Source: a virus
Length of the DNA: 41,670 nucleotides
Strand: one strand, 5' to 3'
Virus record (IMG/VR): IMGVR_UViG_3300045988_034731
Position numbers and translations under genes: made by a program. Of the stretch, positions 4,817-28,668 are shown one piece after another (the first letter of the stretch is position 1; the number at the start of each line of letters is the position of its first letter). The notes beneath the pieces were generated by a model. The model saw only the letters and a program-made list of their open reading frames with translations. It was not told the DNA's origin and ran no database searches.

Positions 4817-4876
4817 TCATCAACACAAATCAACATCGTGGCCACGATTTGATAAATAATTAAAAGGAGTGATTTT

Positions 4877-5611: not shown

Positions 5612-5679
5612 CAACTGCATAGCATAGCTTTTTGCCGACAACGGCAAAATGATCGGCCCCGTGCCGATACTGCGACAAC

Positions 5680-5712: not shown

Positions 5713-5752
5713 ACAGGGTCGATTTCGACCCCTTTAGAAAGGACTGATTATT

Positions 5753-6175: not shown

Positions 6176-6188
6176 AAGGAGAATGGAC

Positions 6189-6563: not shown

Positions 6564-6577
6564 GGGGGTGTAACCCC

Positions 6578-6919
6578 ATGATCGACGAGAACGAGCTCCG
6601 GCTATGGATCAGCCGCCTAGAAACGGAAGAATCCAGCTGGAACAACTACGAGAAACTAGCGGCGCTCTACATCATCCAGAACCAGCAAAAGAAAACGCCC
6701 GAAAGCACAGCAGCTCCGGTGATGTACTCCGCTGCGGCGGCTCCTTCCGTTATGGCGAGCGCTGACGTGGGAGAGTACGGCGATACCGATTTTCTCCGGG
6801 CCGTCGCTGGGAAGGACCCGGCAAAGGCATGGATAGTTGTGGATGAGCTGATGGATACGTTACGCATTGTAAACGAGCGGGTTTACAACAGCGTAATGCG
6901 GAAGATTCAGGCTCTTTAA
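6578..6919 (+). CDS. Hypothetical protein, last gene of the cassette
   Basis: RBS taaggggg. MIDENELRLWISRLETEESSWNNYEKLAALYII... Ends immediately before the att region. Confidence 0.65.
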   Translation: MIDENELRLWISRLETEESSWNNYEKLAALYIIQNQQKKTPESTAAPVMYSAAAAPSVMASADVGEYGDTDFLRAVAGKDPAKAWIVVDELMDTLRIVNERVYNSVMRKIQAL

Positions 6920-6926
6920 CTCCGCA

Positions 6927-6950
6927 AAATTGCACACGAAATTGCACACG
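6927..6950 (+). repeat. Tandem 12-nt repeat aaattgcacacg x2 (candidate integrase arm-type sites, left arm)
   Basis: Exact copies at 6927-6938 and 6939-6950. The same doublet recurs at 7156-7179, with an inverted copy at 7124-7134. Confidence 0.7.
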
Positions 6951-6994
6951 ACTTGATTCTTTCGTTGAATTTATGCGGTTTGTAAAGGTTTTAA

Positions 6995-7024
6995 GCAGGG
7001 GTTCAACTCCCCTCGCCTCCACCA
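6995..7024 (+). other. 3'-terminal fragment of a tRNA or tmRNA (T-arm, acceptor 3' strand, ACCA): probable attP core
   Basis: agggg ttcaact cccct (T stem-loop), then cgcctcc (acceptor 3' strand), then a + cca. No matching 5' acceptor strand (GG(A/G)GGCG) or anticodon arm lies upstream. Confidence 0.65.
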
Positions 7025-7025
7025 A

Positions 7026-7066
7026 AAGGAAAACCGAGGAATCTCAATGGTTCCCCGGTTTTCCTT
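7026..7066 (+). terminator. Hairpin/terminator following the tRNA-like 3' end
   Basis: aaggaaaaccg / cggttttcctt is an 11-bp stem with a 19-nt loop, followed by gatttt. Confidence 0.5.
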
Positions 7067-7123
7067 GATTTTATGCGGGTTTGGCGGCTCTTGCGTCTTG
7101 TAAATTTTACAAGTCTATTTTAG

Positions 7124-7179
7124 CGTGTGCAATTAAAAATCAATTTTTAAGGGAAAAATTGCACACGAAATTGCACACG
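7124..7179. repeat. Right-arm copies of the ttgcacacg motif (one inverted, two direct)
   Basis: cgtgtgcaatt at 7124-7134 is the inverted copy. aaattgcacacg occurs at 7156-7167 and 7168-7179. Located directly upstream of the integrase stop. Confidence 0.7.
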
Positions 7180-7187
7180 AAAATGGG

Positions 7188-8213
7188 CTATTCTTTCGGA
7201 GCGAACAACTCCTCAAAATGCCCGTCAATGATTTTATCAAACGCCTTTTCTTTTTCGGCGAGAGTGTGTTGGTATGTGGTTTTCAGCATGTTATTGGTAG
7301 CGTGGCCCATCCGCTTTATGCCGTACTTATCCGGGATGCCTTCCGCCAGCATGACGGATGCGTTAAAGTGCCGCAGATCGTGGAATCGGTAGTGCCTGAC
7401 TTTGGCCTTCTCGCAGATGCGGACAAAGCCACTATATAGCGCATGTCCGGAAAGGTTCACAATGTGTTCGCTTGTCTTCGGCTGCCTCTGGATTAAATCC
7501 AAAAGGTAGGGCGGAAGGTGTATCCTTCTGGTGCCGCTGTACGTTTTTACTCCTTTTTCAACAGGCCCGTTTTCACCGGCCACAATGGCCCTCCGGATTT
7601 GCAGATACTCACCATTGATATCATCCCAGCGCAGGCCAATAATCTCGGATGCCCGGAGGCCAAGCCAAATGGCAATCATAATTGGCAGCTCGTATTTTGT
7701 ACCTTTGCATGCGTTGGCAATGGCTACAGCGTCGGCCTCAGACGGTATCTCAATTTCCGTTTTTACTTTTTGTGGCATGGTTGTGCGTAAAGCCATTTCC
7801 GGCTTATACTCCGCAAGGATGGGGCTTAAAAATCCGTGTGCGTTTGCGATTGTCTTTGGCGTTTTTCCTTCCCTCGATAGCCTGTTTACCCAGCGTTGCA
7901 CTCGCTCTTGTGTGAGATCGGCTAAAACGATATTCTCAATATCCTTCATCAGATTTTTCCGGATGCGTTTATACCCAGCAATGGTGGACGGGGAAAGAAC
8001 CTCGCTTCTGGATTCGATGTATCGGTCGGCAGCTTCCCCAACTGTAAGTCTTCTTACAGGCTTTTGCGCCTCCACCATTTTTGTTTTGATGCCGGAGGCC
8101 CAAAATTGAGCCTCTTCCGCCGTATCAAAAGTGTTTCCAACTCGTTTCCCGTCAACCATGATCTGGATGCGGTATTTCCCCGATGGTAGTTTTATTGGCT
8201 CTGGAATTTTCAC
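7188..8213 (-). CDS. int: Tyrosine recombinase (phage integrase)
   Basis: GTG start with GGAGGA RBS. N-terminal SAM-like/arm-binding region. C-terminal catalytic motifs LRASE, HDLRH and GHATNNMLKTTYQH (Tyr nucleophile context). Confidence 0.95.
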   Translation of the reverse strand: MKIPEPIKLPSGKYRIQIMVDGKRVGNTFDTAEEAQFWASGIKTKMVEAQKPVRRLTVGEAADRYIESRSEVLSPSTIAGYKRIRKNLMKDIENIVLADLTQERVQRWVNRLSREGKTPKTIANAHGFLSPILAEYKPEMALRTTMPQKVKTEIEIPSEADAVAIANACKGTKYELPIMIAIWLGLRASEIIGLRWDDINGEYLQIRRAIVAGENGPVEKGVKTYSGTRRIHLPPYLLDLIQRQPKTSEHIVNLSGHALYSGFVRICEKAKVRHYRFHDLRHFNASVMLAEGIPDKYGIKRMGHATNNMLKTTYQHTLAEKEKAFDKIIDGHFEELFAPKE

Positions 8214-8283
8214 TTGCTTTTTCCTCCTGTTTTACTATAATGGAGGGGCAGATTGCTCCTGCATGGCGTCTGCGCCCTGATGG

Positions 8284-8313
8284 CCGCCTCCGGTATTTCG
8301 GTATCGGAGGCGG
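8284..8313. other. GC-rich hairpin between the HTH gene and int
   Basis: ccgcctccg / cggaggcgg is a 9-bp stem. The T-run lies only on the + side, so it is probably a weak terminator for the minus-strand transcript. Confidence 0.35.
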
Positions 8314-8322
8314 CTCCTCTTT

Positions 8323-8730
8323 TTATCCTTTGAAAAGGCCCATGCTTGGGTTCAGCAGGTCCAGAGTGATTCCATACACCAGCGCCAGGGCAAGAATCAA
8401 CAGCAGAGCAAAGATTACCCGGTTCTTGTGCTTAATGGCTTCGTTTAACAGCTTGTTCATGTCTTGCTCATGGCTTACTTGCTGAGTAAGTAAGGCTTCC
8501 TCCCGCTCCGTCAAATCCTCGCCTTTCGGCACGATCTCAAAATACCGGTCCAGGGACACTCCCAGGCTCTTGCAAATGGGCCCGACAGTGTAGACGGACG
8601 GCTGCTTGGATGCGCTGGAAAAGTAGTTGTTGACGGTCGAGATCGAGATGCCGGATTCGTCCGCTATGGTTTGTGCTGTTTTCCTTTGCGTTTCTCGCTC
8701 CTTCCAGCAAATGTCCTGGATGGTTTCCAT
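8323..8730 (-). CDS. XRE-family HTH protein with C-terminal transmembrane anchor
   Basis: RBS aaaggag. HTH is KTAQTIADESGISISTVNNYFS. C-terminal TM is VIFALLLILALALVYGITL. Confidence 0.8.
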   Translation of the reverse strand: METIQDICWKERETQRKTAQTIADESGISISTVNNYFSSASKQPSVYTVGPICKSLGVSLDRYFEIVPKGEDLTEREEALLTQQVSHEQDMNKLLNEAIKHKNRVIFALLLILALALVYGITLDLLNPSMGLFKG

Positions 8731-8843
8731 GAGGTACGCTCCTTTCGTTTGCCTGGTTTCTGGAAGATGCTACCAAGCCTGATTTTGCCAAATTCTTAAT
8801 AACTGGAGAGATTCTGCCTTTGCCTCGGCTTGCTCTGCCAACC

Positions 8844-8878
8844 GCCTACCTGCTACGATGCAGCCATAGCAGGTAGGC
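8844..8878. other. Perfect 11-bp inverted repeat in the intergenic region
   Basis: gcctacctgct (8844-8854) and agcaggtaggc (8868-8878), with a 13-nt loop, followed by ttgatgttt on the + strand. Confidence 0.5.
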
Positions 8879-9033
8879 TTGATGTTTGGCGGCTATCTGC
8901 TATAAGGCCCCTCTGCCGGTTGCAGGCGGCAGGGGGGCCAATCAGAACACAATTGCGATTGGCTCCCCAATCGATATAGTATTACATATTGGAATCTTGT
9001 TGTTGACTTGCGATTGCGAATTGTATAAACTGA

Positions 9034-9221
9034 TGGAAGAAGGCGGGAAATTGAAGGAACTGTTGTGTGCGGGATCTTCGGCGCTTGCGCCGGAAGACGT
9101 GCGGGAGAAGCTGAAAGCCGCAGTGCTTTTGCTTTCTGATGAGGAAAAAATAGCTCTGCTTGGTCAAATTAGGAGGATGAAAAATGGCAGAAAGCGTTAC
9201 TCCTCTAGCTACGATGACTGA
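9034..9221 (+). CDS. Possible small protein (62 aa), weakly supported
   Basis: ATG 9034 has no SD and sits 4 nt after a TTGACT-15-TATAAA promoter-like element (9004-9030). Converges on and overlaps the 3' end of 9209..9682. Confidence 0.3.
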
Positions 9222-9682
9222 AGCGTTTCGGAAGGTCCATGAGCTTGCTCCCTTTTGCTTTTCAGATATCCGATAAATCGTAGCATTTCCGCAACTTCTT
9301 CGACGGATGCGGCGGAAATAAAATCAAAAATTTCTTGCTCCACAGGACTAAGCGCTTCGCCTTTGGCGGAGCGCTTTTCTTCACTCTCCGCCGTCAGCTC
9401 CGCCACCAGCTCTTTCACCCTCTGGATATCCTCCAAGCACTTTGCGGTTTCTTCCGGGGTGCTGCCCTCGTGCAGGAGAATGTCGTTTGGCGTGGTTTTA
9501 AGCAGAATACACATGCAGGCGGCTTCTTCTGGGGACGGTAAATTATTGCCTCTTAAGACTTCGCTGTACCATGAACTGTATTTCCCAACTTTTCTTGAAA
9601 ACGCAGATTGATTCCATTCATTCGCTTTTCTTAAAATGTCGATTTTATTGCAATCAACATTTACGGTGTCACGCTTTGCCAT
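9209..9682 (-). CDS. cI-type XRE HTH repressor candidate with an acidic helical C-terminal domain
   Basis: RBS aaagga. HTH is WNQSAFSRKVGKYSSWYSEVLRG. Third gene of the leftward operon opposite the Cro-like gene. Confidence 0.8.
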   Translation of the reverse strand: MAKRDTVNVDCNKIDILRKANEWNQSAFSRKVGKYSSWYSEVLRGNNLPSPEEAACMCILLKTTPNDILLHEGSTPEETAKCLEDIQRVKELVAELTAESEEKRSAKGEALSPVEQEIFDFISAASVEEVAEMLRFIGYLKSKREQAHGPSETLQSS

Positions 9683-9699
9683 ATATATTGTCCTTTGAT

Positions 9700-9858
9700 T
9701 TACTTAATCCCTAACATTTTCCCAAACTTTCGTTGCCTTCCGGCTTTTGACATAGGGATTCCCGTAGATTTTGAGATCTTCTGTTTTGCTTTACTAATCC
9801 CAAGTGCGCGTTTCCAACTAAAAGACAAACCTGGGATTTTGAATGTTTTTTTCGCCAT
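9700..9858 (-). CDS. Small, very basic protein (52 aa)
   Basis: Internal ATG of track ORF 9700..10017, 13 nt after the stop of 9872..10327. MAKKTFKIPGLSFSWKRALGISKAKQKISKSTGIPMSKAGRQRKFGKMLGIK. Confidence 0.5.
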   Translation of the reverse strand: MAKKTFKIPGLSFSWKRALGISKAKQKISKSTGIPMSKAGRQRKFGKMLGIK

Positions 9859-9871
9859 AAATATACTCTTT

Positions 9872-10327
9872 CTATGGATTGCACGTTCCGCACGGGTCGT
9901 ATCCCGCCGCGGACGCTTCTTCCTTGCTATCAAAGTGGACAAGGTTTCCATCGTTAATTTTATCTGTCCAACGGCATGTCGGGCGGTGGTATTTATCACT
10001 TCCCACGCTGCCAACATATTTATACTGCTTCAAGCTTTCGCGAAATGCCTGCTCCGGCGATATTTCCGGTGCGCTTTCTGAATTTTGAGAAGTAGAGGGC
10101 AGGCCTGGTTGCAAATGTTCCGAATTGGGTTTTGTTCCCTCGGCGTTGGCATCACCGATGATAACGCTTGGGGCGTTTTCTTTTTTCACGGCCGGCTGCT
10201 CCATTACTGCCTGAGTGGTATCCGGCGTTTGTTTGGTGGGTTCCGCTGTATCTGGGGCAAATGCTCCAATTACTCCGAGAGCTGCAAGACCAATGACGAC
10301 TGATTTTGCCTTGACCTTGAATGCCAT
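9872..10327 (-). CDS. Secreted or membrane-anchored protein with a C-terminal sunset (Cys-rich, Ada-Zn-like) domain
   Basis: N-terminal signal/TM is KSVVIGLAALGVIGAFA, followed by a low-complexity linker. C-terminal KYHRPTCRWTDKINDGNLVHFDSKEEASAAGYDPCGTCNP matches the sunset-domain pattern. Confidence 0.8.
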   Translation of the reverse strand: MAFKVKAKSVVIGLAALGVIGAFAPDTAEPTKQTPDTTQAVMEQPAVKKENAPSVIIGDANAEGTKPNSEHLQPGLPSTSQNSESAPEISPEQAFRESLKQYKYVGSVGSDKYHRPTCRWTDKINDGNLVHFDSKEEASAAGYDPCGTCNP

Positions 10328-10415
10328 ATAAAGAGCCTCCGTTTAACAGAATATACAAAACAACGTGTCTAATTATGGTCAAAACACAAAAACTGCGATT
10401 TTCAAAGTTATAGCA

Positions 10416-11043: not shown

Positions 11044-11135
11044 TGGATGGATACACGCTGGCGCTGGTCATCATCGGGGCCGGGACGGCCACAGGCTGGG
11101 TGTTCCGGCTCATCGACAGGATCGAGGGGCGATGA
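11043..11135 (+). CDS. Possible 30-aa hydrophobic peptide (not in track)
   Basis: TAATG overlap upstream and ATGA overlap downstream. MDGYTLALVIIGAGTATGWVFRLIDRIEGR. Confidence 0.3.
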   Translation: MDGYTLALVIIGAGTATGWVFRLIDRIEGR

Positions 11136-11788
11136 AAGTTCTAGTTGCCTGCGAGGAATCGCAAGAAGTCTGCAAGGCGTTCCGGGCATTGGGGCATGAG
11201 GCATATTCCTGTGACATTCAGGAGCCGTCCGGCGGACACCCGGAGTGGCATATTCTGGACGATGCCGTGGACGTTGTCAATAGACCCGGGCTTATTACCA
11301 CAATGGACGGTGAAACGCATATTGTTACTTGGGATTTGCTGATCGCACACCCACCGTGCACATATCTCAGCAATGCAGGCGCGCGGCACTTGTGGAAGGG
11401 GCATCAACTGCAACCGGACAGGGTTATGCTTGGGATAAAGGCACGCGACTTTTTCATGGAGTTTTATCGGGCGGATATCCCACTTGTGGCGGTTGAGAAT
11501 CCTGTACCGAGCAAGCTTTTTGTAATGCCGGAATACTCGCAAATTATCCAGCCATATCAATTTGGACATCCGTACACAAAAAGAACGTGCTTATGGTTGA
11601 GAAATCTCCCACCGCTGGAGCCGACAAACATCGTTGAGCCGACAGCAACATGGTGTCCAAGTGGCAGTTACAGCCATAAGCATGGGGAACAGCATAAAGG
11701 TATGTTTACCACGGATAGAGCCAAAAACCGCGCAAAGACCTTCCCCGGCATCGCCAAAGCTATGGCGGAGCAATGGGGGTGTCTATGA
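11132..11788 (+). CDS. DNA cytosine-C5 methyltransferase-like protein (compact phage type)
   Basis: HPPCTYLS (motif IV PC-like) and VAVENPV (motif VI ENV-like). N-terminal VLVACEESQ replaces a canonical FxGxG motif. No long target-recognition region. Confidence 0.7.
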   Translation: MKVLVACEESQEVCKAFRALGHEAYSCDIQEPSGGHPEWHILDDAVDVVNRPGLITTMDGETHIVTWDLLIAHPPCTYLSNAGARHLWKGHQLQPDRVMLGIKARDFFMEFYRADIPLVAVENPVPSKLFVMPEYSQIIQPYQFGHPYTKRTCLWLRNLPPLEPTNIVEPTATWCPSGSYSHKHGEQHKGMFTTDRAKNRAKTFPGIAKAMAEQWGCL

Positions 11789-11850
11789 CCGCCTGGCACA
11801 ACGATCCCATTTCCCCCGAGCGGGCGGATTCCATGTAGGAGTTGGCCCGG

Positions 11851-11975
11851 ATGGCGGGTGTTACCGTGGGGACGTTGACCTCTTCCATCAGCCGCAGGAA
11901 CTAGAAAAGCGCCCTGGGAGGTCCAAGTATCATGTCGTATGGGTGCCCAGGGAAAAGTTTGAAGGAGGAAAAGCA
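11851..11975 (+). pseudogene. Disrupted HTH_17/excisionase-like ORF (frame change at about 11900)
   Basis: AGGAG-N9-ATG at 11851 gives MAGVTVGTLTSSISRRN, then TAG (11902). The -1 frame continues as ELEKRPGRSKYHVVWVPREKFE. Together these look like a MerR/Xis-type winged HTH. Confidence 0.3.
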
Positions 11976-12290
11976 ATGAACGAAGAAATGAAGATGACCC
12001 AGGAGCGGGAAGGCCGGATCCTGGAGGCTGCTATCGACACTTGGGGCACTGAGATGCAGATCGTCGTGGCCATCGAGGAGATGAGCGAGCTGACGAAGGC
12101 CCTCACCAAGTACATCCGGGCCGATGATGTCGCCACGATTGTGACCAATATCCGGGAGGAGATGGCCGACGTGGGAATCATGCTCAATCAGCTCTCCCTC
12201 ATTTTCGGCGATACCACCGAGGAGGAGATCCGCAAGCTGAACCGCCTGCGGCGGAGAATCGAGGATGTGACCGGTGAGACCCTTTTCTGA
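11976..12290 (+). CDS. MazG-like nucleotide pyrophosphohydrolase
   Basis: RBS gaaggagg. EEMSELTKALTKYIR....REEMADV are the paired E-rich metal-binding helices typical of small MazG/NTP-PPase proteins. Confidence 0.7.
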   Translation: MNEEMKMTQEREGRILEAAIDTWGTEMQIVVAIEEMSELTKALTKYIRADDVATIVTNIREEMADVGIMLNQLSLIFGDTTEEEIRKLNRLRRRIEDVTGETLF

Positions 12291-12291
12291 C

Positions 12292-12465
12292 ATGGATATC
12301 CCGGAGCGGCCATTGGAACCGCCGGATCCGGAGGCGGCGCCCTGCTGCCCCTGTTGCGGCGAGGAGTGCGAGACGCTGTACCGGGCGTTTTCCGGGGCCG
12401 TCGTTGGCTGCGAGAAGTGCGTGGACGCCCTGGACGCCTGGGAAAACCGGCATTTGGCAGACTAA
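12292..12465 (+). CDS. Small zinc-ribbon protein
   Basis: CCPCCGEEC...GCEKC gives two CxxC pairs. ATG lies 2 nt after the upstream stop. Confidence 0.55.
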   Translation: MDIPERPLEPPDPEAAPCCPCCGEECETLYRAFSGAVVGCEKCVDALDAWENRHLAD

Positions 12466-12491
12466 ATTTTGGGAAGCAATAGGAGGACAAC

Positions 12492-13082
12492 ATGAAGGAG
12501 ATCAAGGTTAAGCTGACATTTACGGAGCCCATCTTGGGGACGTCTCCGGCCAATCCTGATGTGTATCGGGAGTTCATCGGCAGCAAAAGCCCGGACGCTT
12601 TGAGTGTGGAGGATGAGGTCGCCGCTCTTGGTGCCGACGCTGTGGCGGATAAGGGCATGACGGTATTCCCTCGCCTGGACGATGGCACGCCGTTCCTCTA
12701 CGATTACCAGATCAAGGGATTTTTCAAGGATACCTGCGGTGGCCTTCGCAAAGTGAAGGGGACCGCAAGCGAGAAGATCAAGGCGTACAAGAAGGAAATT
12801 GACAAGCTGATTTTCCCGGAGCCCAGAACGATTCCTCTCCTGTTTGACGGCAAAATCGGTGAGTGTCAGCGCCCTCTGAGAGCGCAGACGGCGCAGGGGG
12901 AGCGCATCAGCCTTGCGATGAGTGAGGAGATTCCCGCCGGGGCGACGTGCGAGTTTACCGTTGTCTGCCTTTGCGACGATCACGAGAAGGCGGTCCGGGA
13001 ATGGCTGGATTATGGCCGTTTATCCGGTATCGGCCAGTGGCGCAATAGCGGGAAAGGTAGATTCCGCTGGGAGGAGCTGTAA
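12492..13082 (+). CDS. Conserved-looking hypothetical protein with a C-terminal GxGxxxxxGxG glycine-rich loop
   Basis: RBS aataggagg. The C-terminus LSGIGQWRNSGKGRFRWEEL (13026-13058 encodes GIGQWRNSGKG) resembles the RAMP/Cas6-type G-rich loop. Confidence 0.7.
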   Translation: MKEIKVKLTFTEPILGTSPANPDVYREFIGSKSPDALSVEDEVAALGADAVADKGMTVFPRLDDGTPFLYDYQIKGFFKDTCGGLRKVKGTASEKIKAYKKEIDKLIFPEPRTIPLLFDGKIGECQRPLRAQTAQGERISLAMSEEIPAGATCEFTVVCLCDDHEKAVREWLDYGRLSGIGQWRNSGKGRFRWEEL

Positions 13083-21848: not shown

Positions 21849-22937
21849 AAGTTGGACTTAAAAAGCCATTGACTTGTGTTACAGTGGGAGATGGGAGGAT
21901 ATTCCTTCCACCTCCCACTTCCATTTCTGCCGCCCGTGCGGCGGTCCGTCCTCCTTCTGCCGCACGGGAATATGCCGCACGCACGATGCAGCCCAACGAT
22001 CAGGGCCGAGAGGCCGCACCTCTCATGCGGTACAGCATGTTTGATGCAGGGTCGCTCCCTTCCGTGCAAGCCGGACGGAACACAGACCGATAGTAACTGC
22101 GACACGACGGAGAGCAACGCCGGATAGCCCACAATGAGAGGGCGCGCGGAACACGACGCAACGGGACTTCGAGAGCCTGAGAAATCGTGGCACAAAGTAA
22201 GGGGCTGGCCGTCATAGTCCCTACCCAGGAATGGTCGCTGAAAACTACGCACGCGGGGGAGCGAGCTCCCTATCTCGATGGACGTGTCTGTGGATTGTGT
22301 CCGAAGCGCCTGTGTGGCGTCGGACCCGAGGTCGTAAGATAATCTAAGCGGCAAGACGGCCAAAATCAGGCCCCTCAGCGGGCAGCACGGAGACGTGCGC
22401 AAACATGACAGAACTCCCCGCACCTCTCAACGATGTGTCCCAGGGGAGACGTTTGCAGACGGAAGCTGGGTGGATGCAGCTCCGTGGGATACTTCGGGTT
22501 CGCAGGTTCAAATCCTGCCGTCTGCACAATGCGTATGGTATCACGCCCCGGCAGCTATGATTGCGTAAGTCCGATAACGAGCCTTGCCTGTGCGCTGTAT
22601 GGAAGCGGCAGGTCGAAGTATTTATTATTTAGCTGGACCCGGCTTGTGTAAAAGAAACGGATGCGACCGACATACCGGCGCAGGGCTGAAAAGTTCCGTG
22701 GTTATCCGGCGCTGCTGTCTTTGCGAGGAGGCTGAGGCGGTAAATGGATGTGGTGTGGTGACGGCAATCGAGAGATTAGGCCGTTGTGTAGGCCAGGCCG
22801 AACAGAGCGCAGCGCCGGAGACTGTGTAAGTATCACGCGCCCCTTGCGGGCATAGAGTAGCCCTTCGGGGTGGGTAAAGTCTGCCGTAATCAGGCCAAGG
22901 GGTGGGGGCCGGTAGCAAAACGAAAGGGAGTGAGCGT
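21849..22937 (+). ncRNA. Candidate large structured non-coding RNA or leader (about 1.1 kb, no credible ORF)
   Basis: Only compositionally implausible ORFs are present, on either strand. It is dense in GC-rich hairpins: 21884-21918 (14/15 bp), a GAGA tetraloop hairpin at 22385-22398, a cUUCGg hairpin at 22860-22871, 22839-22851, and alternative pairings such as cccgtgcggc / gccgcacggg. It also has an embedded tRNA-like element. Confidence 0.45.
22455..22526 (+). ncRNA. tRNA-like element: canonical acceptor stem and T-arm, plausible D-arm, non-canonical anticodon arm
   Basis: gcagacg...cgtctgc is a 7-bp acceptor stem. gcagg ttcaaat cctgc is a T-arm with GTTCAAATC. gctg ggtggatg cagc is a D-arm. 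The 17-nt anticodon-arm region cannot form a 5-bp stem, and no encoded CCA is present. Confidence 0.5.
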
Positions 22938-23375
22938 ATGGCTGGCGGAGCGCCAAGAAAATGGAAAAGCGTAAAGGCAATGCAGGAGGCCATTGACGCT
23001 TACTTCAAAGCGTGCGAGGGTAAGCCGTTTATCGGCGATGACGGATGCGCTGTGCGAGATAAATACGGCATGCCAATCATTATCAACGCAAAGCCGCCGA
23101 CAATCACGGGGCTTGCGTTGGCACTTGGATTCACTGGCAGACAAGCCCTGCTGGATTATCAAGCAAGGCCAGAGTTCGCGGACACGGTTACGCGCGCGAA
23201 GTCCCGATGCGAGGAATACGCCGAATCTAGGCTCTACGATAAGGACGGGGCAAACGGGGCGAAATTTTCGCTTGGGTGCAATTTCGGATGGAACTCCGAA
23301 AACGAAAAGAGCGGCGATCCTGCGGCGCTTGCTGCGCTGCTTGCGGCGTTAAAGGGAAACGGGAATGCGGATTAA
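22938..23375 (+). CDS. terS: Terminase small subunit
   Basis: ATG 22938 after gaaagggag. RKWKSVKAMQEAIDAYF...KPPTITGLALALGFTGRQALLDY is a typical terS HTH block. Overlaps the terL start. Confidence 0.8.
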   Translation: MAGGAPRKWKSVKAMQEAIDAYFKACEGKPFIGDDGCAVRDKYGMPIIINAKPPTITGLALALGFTGRQALLDYQARPEFADTVTRAKSRCEEYAESRLYDKDGANGAKFSLGCNFGWNSENEKSGDPAALAALLAALKGNGNAD

Positions 23376-24597
23376 ATCGCTCTCCGAGAAACAGCGCCAA
23401 ATCATGGATTTTGTGGACAGTGAAGATATGGCGCTGATTTGCGACGGCTCTGTTCGTTCTGGCAAAACTACCATTATGACGATGGCGTTTGTGCTGTGGG
23501 CGATGCAGAACTACGACCGCACGAATTTCGCTATTTGCGGGAAGACGGTGCAGGCGGCAGAGCGAAATATCTTAAAACCGTTGATGGAAATTGACGGGCT
23601 GGGTGTTGCGCTGTCCATGCATTACAAGGTTTCCACGAGAATTTTAACCGTTCGGTGCGGGGATAGGAAAAATTGGTTTTACTTATTCGGCGGTAAGGAT
23701 GAAAGCTCGTATATGCTCATACAAGGCATCACGCTTGCCGGTGTCTTATTCGATGAAGTGGCACTTATGCCGCGTTCGTTCGTGGAGCAAGCGCTTTCCC
23801 GTGCGATTTCATTTGAGCATCCGAAGTATTTTTTTAACTGCAACCCCGAATCACCGCAGCATTGGTTTTACAAAGAGTGGATTGAAAACGAACGGGAGAA
23901 TACGCAGCACATTCACTTCCTATTGGAAGATAACCCAATTCTCACACCGCAGATGATTGAGAGGACAAAGGCCATGTATAGCGGCGTGTTCTACGACCGA
24001 TACATTCGCGGCCTGTGGGTAGTGGCCGAGGGGCTGATTTATCCCATGTTTGGCGAGAGCTGCATTGTGGACGAGCTGCCGGAAAAGGGAGAATACTATG
24101 TTTCCTGCGACTACGGAACACTTAACCCGTTTTCCGCAGGGCTGTGGCGCTGGGACGGCAAGACGGCCACGCGCATCCGCGAGTATTACTATTCCGGGCG
24201 CGAGAACCAGAAAAACAAGACGGACGAGGAATATGCCGACGAAATTAAAAAGCTCATCGGCGAGGCGGATGTCAAAAGCATTATCGTCGACCCGTCTGCC
24301 GCCTCGTTTATCGAAGTTTTGCGGCGCCGCGGTTATATGGTGCGAAAGGCCAACAACGACGTAACCAACGGCATTATGACTACAGCGCGATTTTTGCAGG
24401 ATGGCATTCTCAAGGTGCATCGTGGCTGCAAAGACTGCATCCGCGAGTTTGGTTTATATCGGTGGGACGAAAAATCCGCCGATGACAGGCCGATCAAGGA
24501 AAACGACCACGCAATGGATGAAACACGGTATTTTGCTTATACGGTCCTGAAGAACAAGGCGTATCGGCGCGAGTATACACCACTTTGGAACAGATAG
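23365..24597 (+). CDS. terL: Terminase large subunit (PBSX-type)
   Basis: Walker A is CDGSVRSGKT and Walker B-like is VLFDEV. C-terminal nuclease block is IVDPSAASFI...DHAMDETRY. Confidence 0.95.
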   Translation: MRIKSLSEKQRQIMDFVDSEDMALICDGSVRSGKTTIMTMAFVLWAMQNYDRTNFAICGKTVQAAERNILKPLMEIDGLGVALSMHYKVSTRILTVRCGDRKNWFYLFGGKDESSYMLIQGITLAGVLFDEVALMPRSFVEQALSRAISFEHPKYFFNCNPESPQHWFYKEWIENERENTQHIHFLLEDNPILTPQMIERTKAMYSGVFYDRYIRGLWVVAEGLIYPMFGESCIVDELPEKGEYYVSCDYGTLNPFSAGLWRWDGKTATRIREYYYSGRENQKNKTDEEYADEIKKLIGEADVKSIIVDPSAASFIEVLRRRGYMVRKANNDVTNGIMTTARFLQDGILKVHRGCKDCIREFGLYRWDEKSADDRPIKENDHAMDETRYFAYTVLKNKAYRREYTPLWNR

Positions 24598-24632: not shown

Positions 24633-25988
24633 GTGGCGGTCGGTGAAAGCGAGCAGGCACGCATTGAATTTATCCGCAGCGCGATCAACGAGCACCGCGA
24701 GAGCACGGCGTATAAAACGGCGGTGGATGCGGAGGAATACTATAACGGCCTGAATCCGACCATTAACCGCTATGAAAAGATCATCTACGATATGCAGGGC
24801 CGCAGCCACATGGATATGTGGACGGCGAACCACAAGCTGGCCAGCCGGTTCTTCGGCTTGGCGGTCGATCAAGAGGTTTCGTATTTGCTTGGCAACGGTG
24901 TGACCTTTGCGGAGAAGGAAACACCGAAAAAACTATGCCCGGACTTCGATCAGGAAGTCATGGATGCAGCGCGTGAGGCGAAAATTGCGGGCGTGTCCTT
25001 CGGTTTCTGGGATTTGACGCATTTGCGTGTGTTCTCCCTGCTTGAGTTCGTCCCCCTCTATGATGAAGAGGACGGCGCGATGAAAGCCGGTATCCGGTTC
25101 TGGCAAGTGGCGCCGGATAAGCCCTTGAGAGCGACGCTGTACGAGATCGACGGCTTTACCGAGTATTTCCAGCCGAAAAACAAGAGCATGGAAGTGATGC
25201 AGCCAAAGCGCAGCTATAAGCTAATTGAGCGCAAGGCGGAGGTAGGCGAAACCGAAATCTATGACGGGGGGAATTATCCGAGTTTCCCCATCGTGCCGCT
25301 GAAAAACAACAAGCGGTGCCTTTCCGAGATCGCAGGCAAGCGCAACACCATTGACGCGCTTGACCTTGCGTCCTCGAACATGGTCAACAATGTGGATGAG
25401 GGCAACCTGATTTATTGGGTGCTGTCTAACTGCAACGGCATGGACGATCTCGACGATGCAAAGTTTGTGGAGCGCTTGAAAACCACCCATGTTGCCCACG
25501 CCAACGGCGATGATGGCGCGAAGGTGGAGAGCGAGACCATCGAGGCACCGTATGAGGGCACCAGCAGCACCATTGACATGCTGAAAAAGAAGCTCTATGA
25601 GGATTTCCAGTGCTTTGACGCGGCGGCGGTATCTGCCGGCAACCAGACGGCGACCGCGATCAAGGCCAGCTATGCGCCTCTTGATTTGAAAACGGACAAG
25701 TTTGAATCCGAGGTCACGCGGTTTATTTTGGAAATCCTGCGTTTGGCAGGCATTGAGGATCAGCCGAGTTATACGCGCAATCAGATTATCAACAAGAGCG
25801 AAGAAACGCAGAACATTCTTCTGGGCGCGGCGTATTACGATGACGAGTACATCACAAAGAAGCTGCTGACCATCAATGGTGACATTGACCAGTACGAGGA
25901 CATGGCAAAGCGGAAGGCGGCGGAGGAGATTGACCGGAGCTTTGCGAAACCGGATGCGCCGGAGGTGAACGGCGATGGCGACCAGTGA
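24633..25988 (+). CDS. Portal protein (SPP1 gp6-like)
   Basis: GTG start. 451 aa, positioned after terL, with an acidic C-terminus. Confidence 0.85.
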   Translation: MAVGESEQARIEFIRSAINEHRESTAYKTAVDAEEYYNGLNPTINRYEKIIYDMQGRSHMDMWTANHKLASRFFGLAVDQEVSYLLGNGVTFAEKETPKKLCPDFDQEVMDAAREAKIAGVSFGFWDLTHLRVFSLLEFVPLYDEEDGAMKAGIRFWQVAPDKPLRATLYEIDGFTEYFQPKNKSMEVMQPKRSYKLIERKAEVGETEIYDGGNYPSFPIVPLKNNKRCLSEIAGKRNTIDALDLASSNMVNNVDEGNLIYWVLSNCNGMDDLDDAKFVERLKTTHVAHANGDDGAKVESETIEAPYEGTSSTIDMLKKKLYEDFQCFDAAAVSAGNQTATAIKASYAPLDLKTDKFESEVTRFILEILRLAGIEDQPSYTRNQIINKSEETQNILLGAAYYDDEYITKKLLTINGDIDQYEDMAKRKAAEEIDRSFAKPDAPEVNGDGDQ

Positions 25989-27453
25989 CCTCGGCCACAA
26001 GCTGACCGACAAGGAGCTTGCAAAGCTGGAACGGCTCATTGCAAAACTGTACCGCGAGGCTGGGAAAGAGCTGCAAGCTACTATCGACGCATATTTTGAG
26101 CAGTTCGCCAAGCGCGACGAGGAAATGAAAGCTCTGATCGGCACCGTGCAGAACGGTAAGGAATGGACGGAGGCCGACTATAAGCAATGGCGGCTGAACC
26201 AGATCGGGCGCGGCGAACGCTATCAGGCCATGCGTGATAAGGTGGCACACCGCGTGACCGACGCAAACGCTGTGGCGGTGTCCTACACCAACGATGCAAC
26301 GCCCGGTATCTACTCCCTCAACCGCAACTATTCGGCGTACACCATCGAGCAGGCCGCGGGCAACGTCGGCTTTGACCTGTGGGACGAGCAGACGGTGAAA
26401 CGGCTCATGGTAGAGCAGCCGGAGTTGATGCCATATTACCCGCAAAAACGGGCCCTGAAGCGGGGCATTGATCTAGCGTGGGGCAAAAAACAAATCACGG
26501 CCAGCGTGACGAGCTCCATCCTTCAAGGGAAGAGCATCAAAGGCATGGCGGATGATTTGCAGCGGCACATCACCAACATGAACCGGGATAGCGCCATCCG
26601 CACCGCCCGCACCGCTGTTACAGGAGCACAGAACGCTGGACGCATGGACAGCTACGCAGCGGCGCAAAAAATTGGCATCAAGCTTAAACGGGAGTGGGTG
26701 GCTACGCTGGATGGCCGCACCCGCCACGCTCACGCCATGTTGGATGGGCAGCAGGCGGATATTGATAAGCCCTTTAAGGCTGATGGCTACGAGATCATGT
26801 TTCCCGGCGATACGTCGGCACCAGGTTATCTTGTGTATAATTGCCGATGTACGCTCATTGCTGCCGTGGAAGGAATAGATACTTCTGGAGGGTTGCGACG
26901 GACACGTGACGGATTGATTCCCAATATGACTTATGCACAATGGGAGGCATCAAAACAAGGGTACGCAGAGAAGCAGCTATCCAAGTATCACAACGGTGGC
27001 AATTCCGGCGAAAAAGATGCAACCAAAAACTATTTAAAAAGTGCAACACCGCGCATGGGAAAAGTCAGATATGAGAACGGTTATAGGCAGAAAAATCATG
27101 GTGTTGAGATCCAAGTGGCGAACCAAATCCATGAAAAGTTTGGCGGGAAAATTGTGTTGCTGAAAGAATCGGCGATACCGGGGGTTAAACGCCCGGACAT
27201 GACGTGGAGGGGAAAAGAATGGGAGATTAAGTCCATTTCATCGGCAAAGGCGGCAGATAGCGCATTGCGAAAAGCAATCAAACAAATCCATGGGAACCCG
27301 GGCGGCGTAATTTTTGATGCTACGGAGACGGTCGACTTGCAAAAACTAATATCTGTTCTAGATGCGAGAGCAAAAAGAAGTAAAACTTTTTCGGCAGATA
27401 TAATCGTAATGCAAAACGGTAAATTTGCTTTCGCAAAAAGATATAAAAAATGA
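25975..27453 (+). CDS. MuF/SPP1-gp7-type head morphogenesis protein fused to a C-terminal PD-(D/E)xK nuclease-like toxin module
   Basis: The MuF hallmark is WVATLDGRTRHAHAMLDGQ...FPGD...YNCRCTL. The C-terminal 130 aa include VKRPDMTWRGKEWEIKS (PD at 27193-27198, E-I-K at 27223-27231) and GGVIFDATE. GC content drops visibly after about 26930. Confidence 0.8.
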   Translation: MATSDLGHKLTDKELAKLERLIAKLYREAGKELQATIDAYFEQFAKRDEEMKALIGTVQNGKEWTEADYKQWRLNQIGRGERYQAMRDKVAHRVTDANAVAVSYTNDATPGIYSLNRNYSAYTIEQAAGNVGFDLWDEQTVKRLMVEQPELMPYYPQKRALKRGIDLAWGKKQITASVTSSILQGKSIKGMADDLQRHITNMNRDSAIRTARTAVTGAQNAGRMDSYAAAQKIGIKLKREWVATLDGRTRHAHAMLDGQQADIDKPFKADGYEIMFPGDTSAPGYLVYNCRCTLIAAVEGIDTSGGLRRTRDGLIPNMTYAQWEASKQGYAEKQLSKYHNGGNSGEKDATKNYLKSATPRMGKVRYENGYRQKNHGVEIQVANQIHEKFGGKIVLLKESAIPGVKRPDMTWRGKEWEIKSISSAKAADSALRKAIKQIHGNPGGVIFDATETVDLQKLISVLDARAKRSKTFSADIIVMQNGKFAFAKRYKK

Positions 27454-27561
27454 GGTAACCCCCCACCAGAACGGGCGGAGGATTACCTCGGAAAAACGGA
27501 AACAAAGTTTCCTCACCAATATTATATGCGCACATTGCGGAATAGTCAAGAGGGTAAACAC

Positions 27562-27966
27562 ATGGACATTGAAATTCACAATAACAGCAAGGCGGTCTCT
27601 GCGGGGATCAAGGCGGCGCTGCTGCGGGGACTTGAAAAAGTCGGACTGGTGGCAGAGGGATACGCGAAAAAGCTGTGCCCTGTTGACACCGGCAACTTGC
27701 GGAACAGCATTACCCATATGATAGACGAGCAGGGACCAACGGCAATCATCGGCACGAACAATGAGTATGCCGCTTACGTCGAGCTTGGCACGGGCATTTA
27801 CGCCGAAGGCGGCGGAGGACGTCCTACACCGTGGGTGTATCAGGACGCAAAGGGCAATTGGCATTACACGCGCGGTAACAAGGCACAGCCATTCCTAAAG
27901 CCAGCTGCCGCCGACCATGCAGGGCAGTATCGGGACATTCTGGAAAGCGAGCTGAAAAATGGATAA
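27562..27966 (+). CDS. HK97 gp10-family neck/tail-completion protein
   Basis: AKKLCPVDTGNLRNSI...YAAYVELGTG...QPFLKPA are gp10-family motifs. Uses the internal ATG of track ORF 27526..27966. Confidence 0.7.
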   Translation: MDIEIHNNSKAVSAGIKAALLRGLEKVGLVAEGYAKKLCPVDTGNLRNSITHMIDEQGPTAIIGTNNEYAAYVELGTGIYAEGGGGRPTPWVYQDAKGNWHYTRGNKAQPFLKPAAADHAGQYRDILESELKNG

Positions 27967-28062
27967 GGACTTTATCAAAAAGGTAAAACCCGCGAGGTAC
28001 AGCGGTTTTTATACAATCTATCGCCGCGACGGACTGCGGACAAGGGAAAGGAAGATAGAACA

Positions 28063-28668
28063 ATGGCACTGACACGCAAACTTTTGAAGGGGATGGGTCT
28101 CACCGACGAGCAGGTGGATACCATCATCGAGGCGCATACCGATACCGTGGATGGCTTGAAAGCTGACGTCAGCAAGTACAAGGCGGACGCGGAGAAGCTG
28201 CCCGGCGTCCAGAAGCAGTTGGACGACCTCAAGGCGGCAGGCGATGGCGGTTACAAGGAAAAGTACGAGAAGGAACACTCAGCCTTTGAAGCCTTTAAGA
28301 CTGACATCACGGCAAAGGAGAGCAAGGCGGCGAAGGAAAAGGCCGTCCGGGCTTACTTTGAGAGCAAAAACATCACCGGCGCGAATCTCGACCTTGCGAT
28401 GCGCGGCTGCGGCGAGGAAATGGCCGCATTGGAGCTGGACGGCGAGAAGATTAAGGACACCAAGGCCCTTGATGCACTCGTGGACGGCACCTACAAGGGG
28501 CTTGTCTCCACCACGCAGACGCACGGGGCGAATCCCGCCAACCCCCCGGCGAACACCGGCGGTGGCGCAATGACTAAAGACCAGATCATGCAAATCAAGG
28601 ACAGAGCGGAGCGCCGCGCGGCAATCGCTGCAAACATCAATCTTTTTGAAAATAAGAACGGAGGCTAA
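28063..28668 (+). CDS. Scaffolding protein (GP20-like)
   Basis: LLKGMGLTDEQVDTIIEAHTDTVDGLK, highly helical and charged, immediately upstream of the capsid gene. Confidence 0.8.
   Translation: MALTRKLLKGMGLTDEQVDTIIEAHTDTVDGLKADVSKYKADAEKLPGVQKQLDDLKAAGDGGYKEKYEKEHSAFEAFKTDITAKESKAAKEKAVRAYFESKNITGANLDLAMRGCGEEMAALELDGEKIKDTKALDALVDGTYKGLVSTTQTHGANPANPPANTGGGAMTKDQIMQIKDRAERRAAIAANINLFENKNGG

Follow-up and report, generated by a model that had tools for sequence, protein, structure and literature searches.

The window analyzed here, a 41,670-nt stretch of viral DNA (IMG/VR record IMGVR_UViG_3300045988_034731), probably encodes a MuF polymorphic toxin, carried by a temperate phage and constantly accompanied by a cis-antisense small RNA rather than by a neighboring immunity protein. 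We put the probability of this reading as a whole at roughly 0.6, including the assignment of the host phage, best explained as a temperate phage of gut Clostridia with an Oscillospiraceae-like host. The protein architecture, a MuF part joined to a CdiA-CT-type nuclease, has already been published (Jamet et al. 2017; PMC5576092). The previously overlooked part is a conserved antisense RNA-like unit in the gap behind the toxin gene (Table 1).

Table 1 Features of the MuF-toxin locus, in positions of the window
Feature	Position	Strand	Details
Large terminase	23365-24597		Late operon, upstream of portal and MuF-toxin gene
SPP1-type portal	24633-25988		Late operon, directly before MuF-toxin gene
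MuF-toxin gene	25975-27453	+	492 aa; SPP1 gp7-like minor head protein
Phage_Mu_F domain	26491-26859	+	Residues 173-295; PF04233; includes LDGRTRHAHAMLDGQ and YNCRCTL
Variable cassette block	26700-27590		From identity profile against L001; intergenic gap included
Low-GC tract	26900-27525		0.37-0.49 versus about 0.57 for the whole window
PD-(D/E)XK nuclease module	27064-27450	+	Residues ~364-492; CdiA_C / 1026b CdiA-CT tRNase type, by profile and model
Predicted catalytic residue E378	27106-27108
Predicted catalytic residue D408	27196-27198
Predicted catalytic residue E417	27223-27225
Predicted catalytic residue K419	27229-27231
Predicted cis-antisense small RNA	27445-27514	-	About 70 nt; promoter, hairpins, U-tract
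AUUUUUU tract	27445-27451	-	After the hairpin; complement of AAAAAAT
Terminator-type hairpin	27452-27489	-	16 uninterrupted pairs, 6-nt loop; begins inside the toxin stop codon
5' stem-loop of predicted RNA	27498-27512	-	GGAAAC/GUUUCC
-10 box TATAAT	27521-27526	-	Predicted from consensus and conservation
-35 box TTGACT	27544-27549	-	17-nt spacer; abuts the gp10 Shine-Dalgarno sequence on the other strand
gp10-like gene	27562-27966	+	HK97 gp10-like head-tail connector, 134 aa; structural

Genomic context of the MuF-toxin gene

The MuF-toxin ORF agrees exactly in coordinates, strand and length with the first-pass annotation of this DNA, which had also assigned it a MuF/SPP1-gp7 N-terminus. Database matches bear this assignment out: residues 173-295 match Pfam Phage_Mu_F (PF04233; E 3.7e-18) and the top PHROG for the ORF is PHROG 115 'minor head protein' (E 2.9e-35). 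The gene occupies the expected place in the packaging module, after terminase and portal, and the window carries an integrase (7188-8213) and HTH repressors as temperate-phage traits. The downstream neighbor at 27562, earlier called a gp10-family structural protein, is indeed one (Pfam HK97-gp10, E 9.5e-9; PHROG 5 'tail completion or Neck1', E 4.5e-22), with a start backed by the alignment of relatives and by a conserved AAGAGG Shine-Dalgarno sequence. As an immunity gene it was ruled out, being structural and retaining 75-90% identity across toxin alleles that are only 56-71% identical, that is, without co-variation with the toxin.

The C-terminal module matches CdiA-CT-type nucleases

Profile comparisons and structure modeling confirmed the C-terminal ~130 residues as a predicted PD-(D/E)XK nuclease domain of the CdiA_C / 1026b CdiA-CT type. 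Against Pfam CdiA_C (PF18451), the window's protein scored 18.2 bits (E 0.0028, residues 405-482), below the cut-off of 26.6, with an alignment spanning model positions 1-80 of 81. CdiA_C was also matched by 20 of 21 close homologues (E <= 0.01) and 51 of 74 distant ones (E <= 0.001), with a best value of 2.6e-09. An AlphaFold model of the module (pLDDT 88.4, pTM 0.84) gave a sole significant Foldseek match in the PDB, the Burkholderia pseudomallei 1026b CdiA-CT (4G6V_A; E 9.9e-4, probability 1.0), at TM-scores of only 0.51/0.59 and a sequence identity of only about 14%. The order of secondary-structure elements is that listed for 4G6V, and the E...PD...(D/E)xK spacing of 30 and 9 residues resembles that of E187/D214/D223 in the latter (27 and 9). 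Matches in BFVD comprised minor capsid proteins, a 'CDI toxin-like protein' and a 'tRNA nuclease CdiA C-terminal domain-containing protein'. With CdiA_C in the homologues and 4G6V_A as the structural match, the restriction endonuclease fold of CdiA-CT tRNase type, which the first-pass annotation had named, was the right one.

The C-terminal sequence quoted there, with its PD...E-x-K arrangement, is likewise present and its residues are conserved among homologues. P407-D408 and E417-x-K419 are invariant or nearly so across homologues, and E378, D408, E417 and K419 are invariant in every alignment made; these covered the closest relatives and the top-scoring portion of a toxin-domain family of 938 clusters at 50% identity. 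Carriers of this family are mostly phages of human-gut Clostridia. The module also occurs on Phage_min_cap2 and VG15 proteins, standalone, and in a DUF3791-DUF3990 operon. The 4G6V toxin cleaves tRNA-Ala with Mg2+ (PMC9086364); by analogy, the present domain may be a Mg-dependent nuclease with tRNA as its cleavage target, and we infer that it would be toxic and delivered into cells.

Cassette-like variation and GC content

Sequence comparison among near-identical phages showed the toxin module to behave as a putatively mobile low-GC cassette, discrete and variable. DNA identity between the window and the near-identical phage L001 is 50-70% across about 26700-27590, flanked by 90-97% upstream and 80-96% downstream. 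Discrete toxin alleles also exist among 80 same-lineage phages: their identity to the window's allele is about 56-71%, and the MuF N-terminal parts that carry them mostly retain 80-90%. The alleles seen all represent one fold family, and none in the lineage had been exchanged for an unrelated toxin.

Between about 26900 and 27525 the GC content is 0.37-0.49, down from about 0.58, much as previously described (a fall from ~26930, with ~37% at 27361-27420); a direct count gave 22 of 60 (36.7%) for 27360-27419. Segments of equal length with GC as low or lower make up only 1.1%. The toxin module has a GC content of 0.429 (GC3 0.433), compared with 0.563 (GC3 0.669) in the MuF part of the same ORF. 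Region 9400-10400 is likewise low in GC. Across loci, toxin GC was below that of the toxin's own upstream kilobase in 154 of 154 cases, whatever the background; low GC is therefore no sign of a recent swap into the window phage. The horizontally swapped cassette of the first-pass annotation thus stands as a discrete low-identity block relative to L001, without the GC content as a mark of recency.

No immunity ORF adjoins the toxin gene

The toxin gene had been described as lacking an adjacent immunity gene, and such an ORF is absent in all related loci examined. Toxin stop and gp10 are separated by a 108-nt gap (27454-27561); of the 80 loci in the lineage that show both genes, 77 have a gap of 106-111 nt. 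The earlier statement that the gap holds no ORF is correct in that none lies within it, but the gap is not empty, as it contains a predicted antisense promoter, hairpins and a terminator. Three ORFs cross it. Two, 27425-27721 (+) and 27358-27864 (-), have tblastn matches in relatives only where they overlap gp10, and 27320-27535 (-) has no tblastn match in relatives. No minus-strand ORF ending at the hairpin was detected among the related loci examined. The next gene varies with the background and can be gp10, large terminase, small terminase, scaffold or others.

An immediately downstream cognate immunity gene is a usual trait of MuF toxins, although outside their domain-based definition by Jamet et al.; it was found neither in the window nor in relatives. 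The published criterion for downstream immunity is only an ORF under 150 aa (Jamet et al. 2017; PMC5576092), so the 134-aa gp10 gene would falsely pass.

A conserved antisense RNA-like unit

The minus strand of the gap carries the elements of a small RNA gene with a predicted sigma-70 / sigma-A promoter. The transcription start near 27514 was deduced from the -10 box and the 3' end was placed in the U-tract, so that the predicted RNA overlaps the toxin ORF by only about 9 nt. On the plus strand, the complementary AAAAAAT encodes the two lysines (K-K) that end the toxin and supplies the first base of its stop codon. Relatives feature compensatory GGGAAC/GUUCCC variants of the 5' stem-loop.

Comparative data at the sequence level showed this candidate RNA element to be conserved, specific, strand-oriented and covarying. 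Of 47 distinct sequences, 44 have a hairpin after the stop codon, and compensatory changes affect 9 of 13 pairs, a level reached by none of 500 shuffles. Minus-strand promoters were identified in 50 of 70 distinct sequences, compared with 7.7 (maximum 15) after shuffling and 9 on the plus strand; by eye, all 11 of 11 independent loci have TTG(A/C)(C/A)N, a 17-nt spacer and a TA(T/C)A-type -10 box. A covariance model gave one strong minus-strand match per source, at the toxin 3' end, in 57 of 57 viral sources (448 kb; counting loci that contain the toxin 3' end and including the window, which matches at 27442-27494 (-) with 62.6 bits). The only extra strong matches were second copies in L147 and L007. 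The model also matches 9 of 9 prophages in named genomes and 2 of 2 non-MuF contexts, and the unit was essentially nowhere else in about 600 kb searched; the 16-base hairpin core is also present in unrelated terminators and GC-rich coding DNA. No Rfam family reached its gathering score. The only match, BTnc201 (29.9 bits versus a gathering score of 105), was weak and not reproduced in 8 distant loci. The same arrangement was observed in Faecalibacterium phage Aster, a cultured phage with a named host.

Alternative readings of strand, partner and role

In the window, the folding energy of the hairpin is -35.9 kcal/mol for the minus strand, compared with -24.2 for the plus strand, and the minus strand is more stable by about 10 kcal/mol in every variant. 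Paired cells amount to 94.9% on the minus and 74.0% on the plus strand, G-U cells number 65 on the minus strand versus 0 in the opposite sense, and the covariance model scores the minus strand at 41-67 bits and the plus strand at no more than 33. The covariation and the 65-to-0 excess of G-U cells show the minus-strand RNA to be the form under selection. This asymmetry already disfavors action on the plus strand, as a late-mRNA terminator, attenuator or stabilizer, or action as a DNA recombination site, which we regard as very unlikely. G-T pairs are tolerated in single-stranded DNA hairpins too, and in the Aster-like group a plus-strand U-rich stretch (UAUUUAUUAUAUA) follows the hairpin, making some bidirectional termination conceivable, but the lineage of the window lacks a plus-strand U-tract at this point and a promoter of fixed geometry is conserved upstream on the minus strand. 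An unlikely though credible alternative is a classical toxin with its protein immunity gene at another site of the prophage, such as the lysogeny-expressed block 9209-10327 (-), with the antisense unit being a mere insulating terminator and promoter of no bearing on the toxin. The experimentally studied Apk2 MuF toxins own cognate protein immunities (PMC12226406), region 9400-10400 is low in GC, and contig 035073, with the window's backbone but a toxin only 58% identical, also departs from the window in 9209-10327 (-), 2171-2869 (-) and 11132-13082. Known immunity families, however, were not found in 30 non-structural ORFs, and both the cargo ORFs at 3224-6919 and the repressor at 8323-8730 retain 91-100% identity despite the differing toxin allele; of the immunity candidates suggested earlier, those at 3649-6919 and 8323-8730 thus fail to co-vary with the toxin. 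The window and phage Aster have as common proteins only the toxin module and a tape-measure protein. Moreover, an insulator would not be expected to track the toxin domain into MuF, min_cap2, VG15 and standalone contexts, across which promoter, 17-nt spacing and covarying stem are all intact.

Other readings concern the protein. It might be an injected effector for host takeover or counter-defense, akin to 'polyvalent proteins', and not an inter-bacterial weapon; made late in a soon-lysing cell, it would need no immunity and would target host RNA as the following infection begins. We judge this possible but on balance improbable. Iyer et al. 2017 (PMC5512222) proposed that MuF-fused enzymatic domains are effectors delivered with phage DNA; in addition, the gene sits in the late packaging operon, the toxin domain also occurs in an operon with DUF3990 and DUF3791, and these phages carry a tRNA or tRNA-like gene. 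Left unexplained are the discrete toxin alleles on a conserved backbone, which are typical of toxin-immunity arms races, and the constant association of a dedicated antisense unit with the domain. As regards the RNA, an injected effector is compatible with our preferred explanation. A non-toxic role of the C-terminal extension, in head structure or DNA binding, might be argued from MuF C-terminal domains predicted to be inactive (PMC5512222), but is highly improbable given the catalytic E, D, (D/E) and K invariant in all alignments made, a fold and, by way of the homologues, a Pfam family that are those of a proven tRNase toxin, and the foreign composition, several alleles, and standalone and non-MuF occurrences of the module.

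Proposed function of the antisense unit

In the preferred reading, a toxin partnered by a cis-antisense RNA, the MuF/gp7 part would, if SPP1 gp7 is a guide, incorporate a small number of protein copies into the capsid, and packaged copies would enter the next cell together with the DNA. The unit filling the 108-nt gap, with its sigma-A-type promoter, 5' stem-loop and intrinsic terminator, would yield a cis-antisense RNA of about 50-70 nt. This RNA is presumably transcribed and likely targets the toxin mRNA, with which it would pair just past the stop codon, restraining expression of the toxin in the lysogen or the producing cell. Such antitoxin-like action would parallel that of type I antitoxin RNAs in Bacillus prophages, which are convergent with the toxin and overlap it at the 3' end. 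The RNA could limit the lysogen's own toxin synthesis and not neutralize toxin injected by a superinfecting phage; because injected protein would escape neutralization, it would be no replacement for classical immunity. More tentatively, and in our view doubtfully, the unit could be an RNA antitoxin or immunity factor proper, either a type I-like silencer or a G-U-rich, tRNase-binding substrate mimic (type III-like). If so, the mobile cassette would consist of 'toxin domain plus RNA' and protein immunity would be dispensable for the family.

Comparison with known systems

The locus shares with the cd13442 / CdiA-CT(1026b)-type MuF toxins of Jamet et al. 2017 (PMC5576092) the MuF N-terminus, the post-portal position in the packaging module, the temperate phage, a C-terminal nuclease also found in CDI systems and a variable toxin on a conserved N-terminus. 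It differs from them in that the adjacent ORF, here and in all relatives examined, is a structural or packaging gene, and in its antisense RNA-like constant neighbor, which is not described in that work. Features common to the 1026b CdiA-CT/CdiI pair (4G6V) are the PD-(D/E)XK fold, element order, a similar acidic-residue spacing and, by way of the homologues, Pfam CdiA_C, whereas the lysine takes the classical (D/E)xK position here and a later one in 4G6V (K242), delivery would be by phage capsid and not by a type V secretion system, and a CdiI-like gene is absent. The Apk2 toxins with their IapK and Aph1 immunities, experimentally validated examples of MuF toxins, are likewise prophage MuF fusions, but with a different chemistry ((p)ppApp synthetase) and with two immunity genes directly downstream, compared with none here (PMC12226406). 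Polyvalent or injected effectors (Iyer et al. 2017; PMC5512222) similarly comprise a MuF-fused enzymatic domain presumed to be delivered with DNA; the present protein has a single effector domain and allelic diversification, and that framework predicts no dedicated adjacent regulator.

Type I toxin-antitoxin systems of Bacillus subtilis prophages (txpA/RatA, bsrG/SR4, bsrE/SR5, yonT/SR6; PMC7430163) also reside in Firmicutes prophages and have a convergent RNA gene. Their transcripts are complementary at the 3' ends, and RNase III cleavage occurs at the stop codon or slightly downstream of it (PMC7430163). The predicted antisense RNA gene described here is similarly convergent with the toxin transcript and overlaps its 3' end. 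Type I RNAs are longer (100-220 nt, with at least about 100 nt complementary to the toxin mRNA) than the about 50-70 nt predicted here, and their toxins are small hydrophobic membrane peptides of 30-60 aa, a trait absent from this ~130-aa nuclease domain of a 492-aa virion protein. Unlike in B. subtilis, the toxin lies within a polycistronic late mRNA. Type I systems thus provide a working analogy, with no membership claimed. In the type III system ToxIN, an RNA antitoxin binds an endoribonuclease toxin, and ToxI is a tandem repeat array located upstream of toxN on the same strand and processed by the toxin. The present locus resembles ToxIN in combining a nuclease toxin with a small structured RNA, and differs in having a single downstream antisense hairpin without repeats.

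Significance

Polymorphic toxins are normally seen as two-gene modules, and immunity candidates are usually chosen by adjacency. A large family here departs consistently from this pattern, having no adjacent immunity ORF and an antisense RNA-like unit in every context examined. As a practical warning, the rule that a downstream ORF of <150 aa represents immunity scores a head-tail connector gene as immunity at this locus. If the RNA controls or neutralizes the toxin, the principle of RNA antitoxins would apply to phage-delivered polymorphic toxins as well, which would explain how producer cells tolerate the nuclease and define a new class of phage small RNA.

A MuF head protein with a CdiA-type nuclease module

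The 492-aa ORF named in the first-pass annotation is present in the window as described. The MuF domain that had been proposed is borne out by Pfam, with Phage_Mu_F at residues 173–295 (E = 3.7e-18), and by PHROG, where the top match is 'minor head protein'. The layout of positions 1–10400 indicates a temperate phage. Related prophages occur in gut Clostridia, comprising Oscillospiraceae (closest), Gemmiger, Lachnospiraceae, Eubacterium and Clostridium MAGs, and a cultured relative is available in the Faecalibacterium phage Aster.

Features of the window around the MuF-toxin gene, in the lysis and lysogeny region and in the antisense unit
Feature	Coordinates	Strand	Remark
XhlA-like holin	582–896		
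CHAP endolysin	1327–1815		
~12 small unannotated ORFs	2171–6919		one block
Tyrosine integrase	7188–8213	minus	
HTH repressors	8323–8730 and 9209–9682	minus	
tRNA-like element	22455–22526	plus	in ORF-poor 22100–22900
Large terminase	23365–24597		late operon, upstream of MuF gene
SPP1-type portal	24633–25988		late operon, directly before MuF gene
MuF-toxin gene	25975–27453	plus	492 aa
HK97 gp10-like connector gene, then scaffold-like gene, then capsid-like gene			downstream of MuF-toxin gene
Terminator hairpin	27452–27489	minus (RNA)	starts inside toxin stop codon
AUUUUUU tract		minus	directly after hairpin
Promoter-like site TTGACT, 17 nt, TATAAT	27549–27521	minus	

The C-terminal toxin module of the window protein covers positions 1–80 of the 81-position Pfam model CdiA_C (PF18451) at 18.2 bits against a cut-off of 26.6; the same model is matched by 20 of 21 close homologues and 51 of 74 full-length representatives. 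Sequence and profile searches against PDB sequences returned only chance matches, so that the link to a known structure required fold comparison. An AlphaFold model of the module, built with 21 homologues as input, was confident (pLDDT 88.4, pTM 0.84), and Foldseek gave a sole significant match in the PDB, 4G6V_A (E = 9.9e-4, probability 1.00, TM 0.51/0.59), the CdiA-CT of B. pseudomallei 1026b, whose order of elements the model reproduces from fragment residue 29 on. The 4G6V toxin is a Mg-dependent PD-(D/E)XK tRNase with tRNA-Ala as substrate, according to a review (PMC9086364) that also supplied the active-site data. E378, D408, (D/E)417 and K419 were invariant among the family members aligned. 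The model places them in helix 1, ahead of core strand 2 and in core strand 3, as in classical PD-(D/E)XK enzymes, and they are predicted to constitute the active site.

Matches in a viral structure library comprised minor capsid proteins, a 'CDI toxin-like protein' and a 'tRNA nuclease CdiA C-terminal domain-containing protein'. An exhaustive profile search with the module yielded 938 clusters (50% identity) at E ≤ 0.001. Among the 150 matches listed out of these 938, nearly all carry the module at the extreme C-terminus, and the N-terminal partners in 74 full-length proteins sampled were Phage_Mu_F, Phage_min_cap2 or VG15. Because cd13442, the 1026b CdiA-2 tRNase domain, is already among the MuF toxin domains of Jamet et al. 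2017 (PMC5576092), the protein architecture was known. The window protein adds a new member to a family already described.

Some variants of this architecture were seen. In L001, a close relative, an in-frame TAA (5983–5985) stands between a MuF part of 330 aa and a toxin module of 154 aa that has its own ATG. This could be explained by a nonsense mutation or a sequencing error, or the two parts could be genuinely separate; toxin ORFs of ~150 aa that stand alone also exist (P0020–P0025). The distant locus L119 has, 175–1257 nt past the toxin stop codon, a second ORF of 360 aa that by eye may be MuF-like (GANCRHSYWPY). The tRNA-like element at 22455–22526 reaches 29.5 bits with the Rfam tRNA model (gathering score 29) and receives no tRNA call from ARAGORN. 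Pairing is perfect in both its 7-bp acceptor stem and its T-arm (GGUUCAAAUCC), but the anticodon arm is degenerate, with a 3-bp stem and a 10-nt loop. The element is ~80% conserved in four related loci (L012, L059, L048 and L039), with a compensatory change in the acceptor stem, and the equivalent position of L001, the closest relative (1280–1354), holds a genuine tRNA-Gln(UUG). This may matter here, given that the toxin is predicted to cut tRNA.

The toxin module is a low-GC allelic cassette

GC content drops, as had been noted, from ~0.58 to 0.37–0.49 over roughly 26900–27525. The toxin module has a GC of 0.429 (GC3 0.433) versus 0.563 (GC3 0.669) for the MuF part of the same ORF, and just 1.1% of equal-length windows are as low. 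The module remains at ~0.43–0.44, against 0.56–0.57 in its own upstream kilobase, in 154 of 154 loci. Composition thus marks it as foreign everywhere rather than as a recent import into one phage: of the swapped cassette proposed earlier, a variable module that keeps its foreign composition in every background stands, whereas recent import into this phage does not.

In the 80 IMG/VR loci of this phage lineage, identity is mostly 80–90% for the MuF N-terminal part and mostly 75–90% for gp10, and the toxin modules form discrete alleles that share about 71, 68, 58 and 56% identity with that of the window. Compared with L001, which has a 96% identical portal, DNA identity is 90–97% up to ~26420, 50–70% over ~26700–27590 and 80–96% thereafter. 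The remaining patches of the window with GC as low as that of the module (0.41–0.43) are 9400–9650, 10150–10400 and ~6850–6950. The first two patches lie in the lysogeny region, where the minus-strand ORFs 9209–9682 (HTH_31), 9700–10017 and 9872–10327 (Ada_Zn_binding) form a block that is replaced in the otherwise similar contig 035073.

No immunity gene lies next to the toxin

The reported lack of an adjacent immunity gene extends beyond the window, since the toxin–gp10 gap measures 106–111 nt in 77 of the 80 lineage loci showing both genes. In the window it spans 27454–27561 (108 nt), and no ORF lies within it; ORFs running across it either match relatives only at the gp10 overlap or have no counterpart there. 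Elsewhere the toxin is followed by the large terminase (Aster), the small terminase, scaffold or other genes. Within the lineage, gp10 does not co-vary with the toxin allele, and its 134-aa gene would falsely pass the immunity criterion of the founding survey, a downstream ORF of <150 aa (PMC5576092). Pfam detected no known immunity families in 30 non-structural ORFs of the window, and a tblastn comparison revealed no immunity gene common to the window and Aster, the two sharing only the toxin module and the tape-measure protein.

Two further locations were considered and rejected. The gp10–scaffold junction (window 27966–28063; equivalent in L001–L087) is a variable insertion site with gaps of about 100–1660 nt, and in L001 it holds extra small ORFs of 85 and 48 aa that the window lacks. 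Insertions there show no relation to the toxin allele, and under every allele most phages lack one. L054, the only lineage member with an enlarged toxin–gp10 gap (526 nt), has, on the downstream side of the antisense unit described below, an ORF of 66 aa (5583–5783) predicted to contain two membrane helices, a candidate confined to this single locus.

The first-pass annotation had also pointed to small ORFs in 3649–6919 and 8323–10327. Co-variation of this cargo with the toxin could be judged from contig 035073, the only contig giving both the toxin and the lysogeny regions; it has the same backbone as the window and another toxin allele. Its scaffold and capsid genes are 99–100% identical to those of the window and its toxin only 58%. 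The cargo ORFs in 3224–6919 are 91–100% identical and the repressor at 8323–8730 is 96% identical despite the divergent toxin, which makes them poor candidates for allele-specific immunity and leaves, from the regions proposed, 9209–10327 (−), which differs. Immunity may reside in this block or in the other two that differ between the contigs, 2171–2869 (−) and 11132–13082.

A conserved antisense unit follows the toxin stop codon

The gap, previously taken as empty, holds a conserved antisense unit of predicted promoter, small stem-loop and terminator hairpin on the minus strand. The hairpin follows the toxin stop codon in every allele of the lineage and is kept in distant phages whose toxins are only 37–50% identical (44 of 47 distinct sequences). 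Its outer stem shows compensatory variants, including GAGGUAA/UUACCUC, GAGCCG/CGGCUC, GAACCCG/CGGGUUC and AGAAACCUUAG/CUAAGGUUUCU. Between promoter and terminator, many lineages including that of the window have a second small stem-loop with retained pairing and variable sequence. A minus-strand sigma-70-type promoter precedes the hairpin in 50 of 70 distinct sequences, compared with a mean of 7.7 (maximum 15) in shuffles and 9 for the plus strand of the same region; its −10 box usually ends 5–9 nt ahead of the first stem. Eleven loci outside all models show, by eye, TTG(A/C)(C/A)N, a 17-nt spacer and a TA(T/C)A-type −10, often with an extended TG.

Covariation was assessed on an alignment of 24 distinct hairpin sequences. 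RNAalifold predicted 13 pairs, nine of them with compensatory changes. Standard pairs occupy 94.9% of cells; slid controls gave 45–62%, and by any measure none of 500 shuffles reached the observed value. The wobble pairs decide the strand as minus, with 65 G–U cells in the minus-strand RNA versus 0 in the opposite sense and 94.9% versus 74.0% of cells pairing. Folding of three divergent variants was ~10 kcal/mol better for the minus strand. Among 17 diverse representatives, no minus-strand ORF ends at the hairpin, which argues against its being the terminator of a convergent immunity or other protein-coding gene.

A covariance model built on the terminator hairpin and searched on both strands gave exactly one strong match (41–67 bits) in each of 57 sources (448 kb), always on the minus strand at the toxin 3′ end. 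The only extra matches were second copies in two loci, one in tandem with the first (L147, 3487–3531 (−)) and one ~150 nt further downstream (L007, 4326–4376 (−)); neither the window nor the complete Aster genome contained further ones. The model also matched nine of nine prophages of named genomes and both non-MuF contexts, a DUF3791–DUF3990–CdiA_C operon and a locus beside a GDSL lipase. In the compact operon (L314, 119–1169), genes for DUF3791 (72 aa), DUF3990 (116 aa) and a standalone CdiA_C toxin (161 aa) overlap at their stop and start codons, and the antisense element lies at the toxin 3′ end, placing the cassette in a non-MuF setting. A prophage remnant (L002 and L003), in which a truncated 230-aa MuF-toxin ORF, gp10 and scaffold adjoin bacterial RpiR/SIS regulator genes, keeps the element at 64.2 bits in L002.

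The 16-base hairpin core proved unsuitable as a marker, with only 26 of 118 viral matches at toxin ends; the full covariance model is specific. No Rfam family matched the unit at its gathering score, and a weak match to BTnc201 in the window is absent from distant loci and was read as terminator-like resemblance. The literature searched contained no description of an antisense RNA tied to MuF toxins. A different RNA, the GP20-b cis-regulatory element (RF03003), occurs in the distant toxin-bearing phages L138 (5629–5688, 53.9 bits) and L007 (4521–4582, 33.9 bits), in the latter just upstream of a scaffold-like gene, and was not detected in the window.

Proposed role of the antisense unit

Toxin domain and antisense unit together make up a single conserved cassette. 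Transcription of the unit would yield an RNA of ~70 nt in the window (27514 to about 27445) and ~50 nt in Aster-like phages. As an exact complement of the late mRNA immediately beyond the toxin stop codon, this RNA would be expected to act on the toxin cistron in cis. The fixed G–U positions may keep the plus-strand hairpin weak, allowing late transcription and translation to pass through. The nearest working model is provided by the type I antitoxin RNAs of B. subtilis prophages. Their genes are convergent with the toxin gene, and pairing of the 3′ ends of the antitoxin RNA and the toxin mRNA makes RNase III cut at the stop codon or close to it (PMC7430163). In contrast to type I systems, the predicted RNA of the antisense unit is short and the toxin is unlike type I toxins. 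A type III-like mode, with the RNA binding the nuclease, is possible; the single feature pointing to it is the sequence-conserved, G–U-rich inner stem. Antisense action on the mRNA, for its part, cannot protect a lysogen from toxin protein injected by another phage.

Overall, the finding of the first-pass annotation is real and its reading essentially right. It stands out through the conserved antisense unit, of which Rfam and the literature searched appear to hold no description and which, judged from sequence, is predicted to take the place of the expected adjacent immunity ORF across the family.
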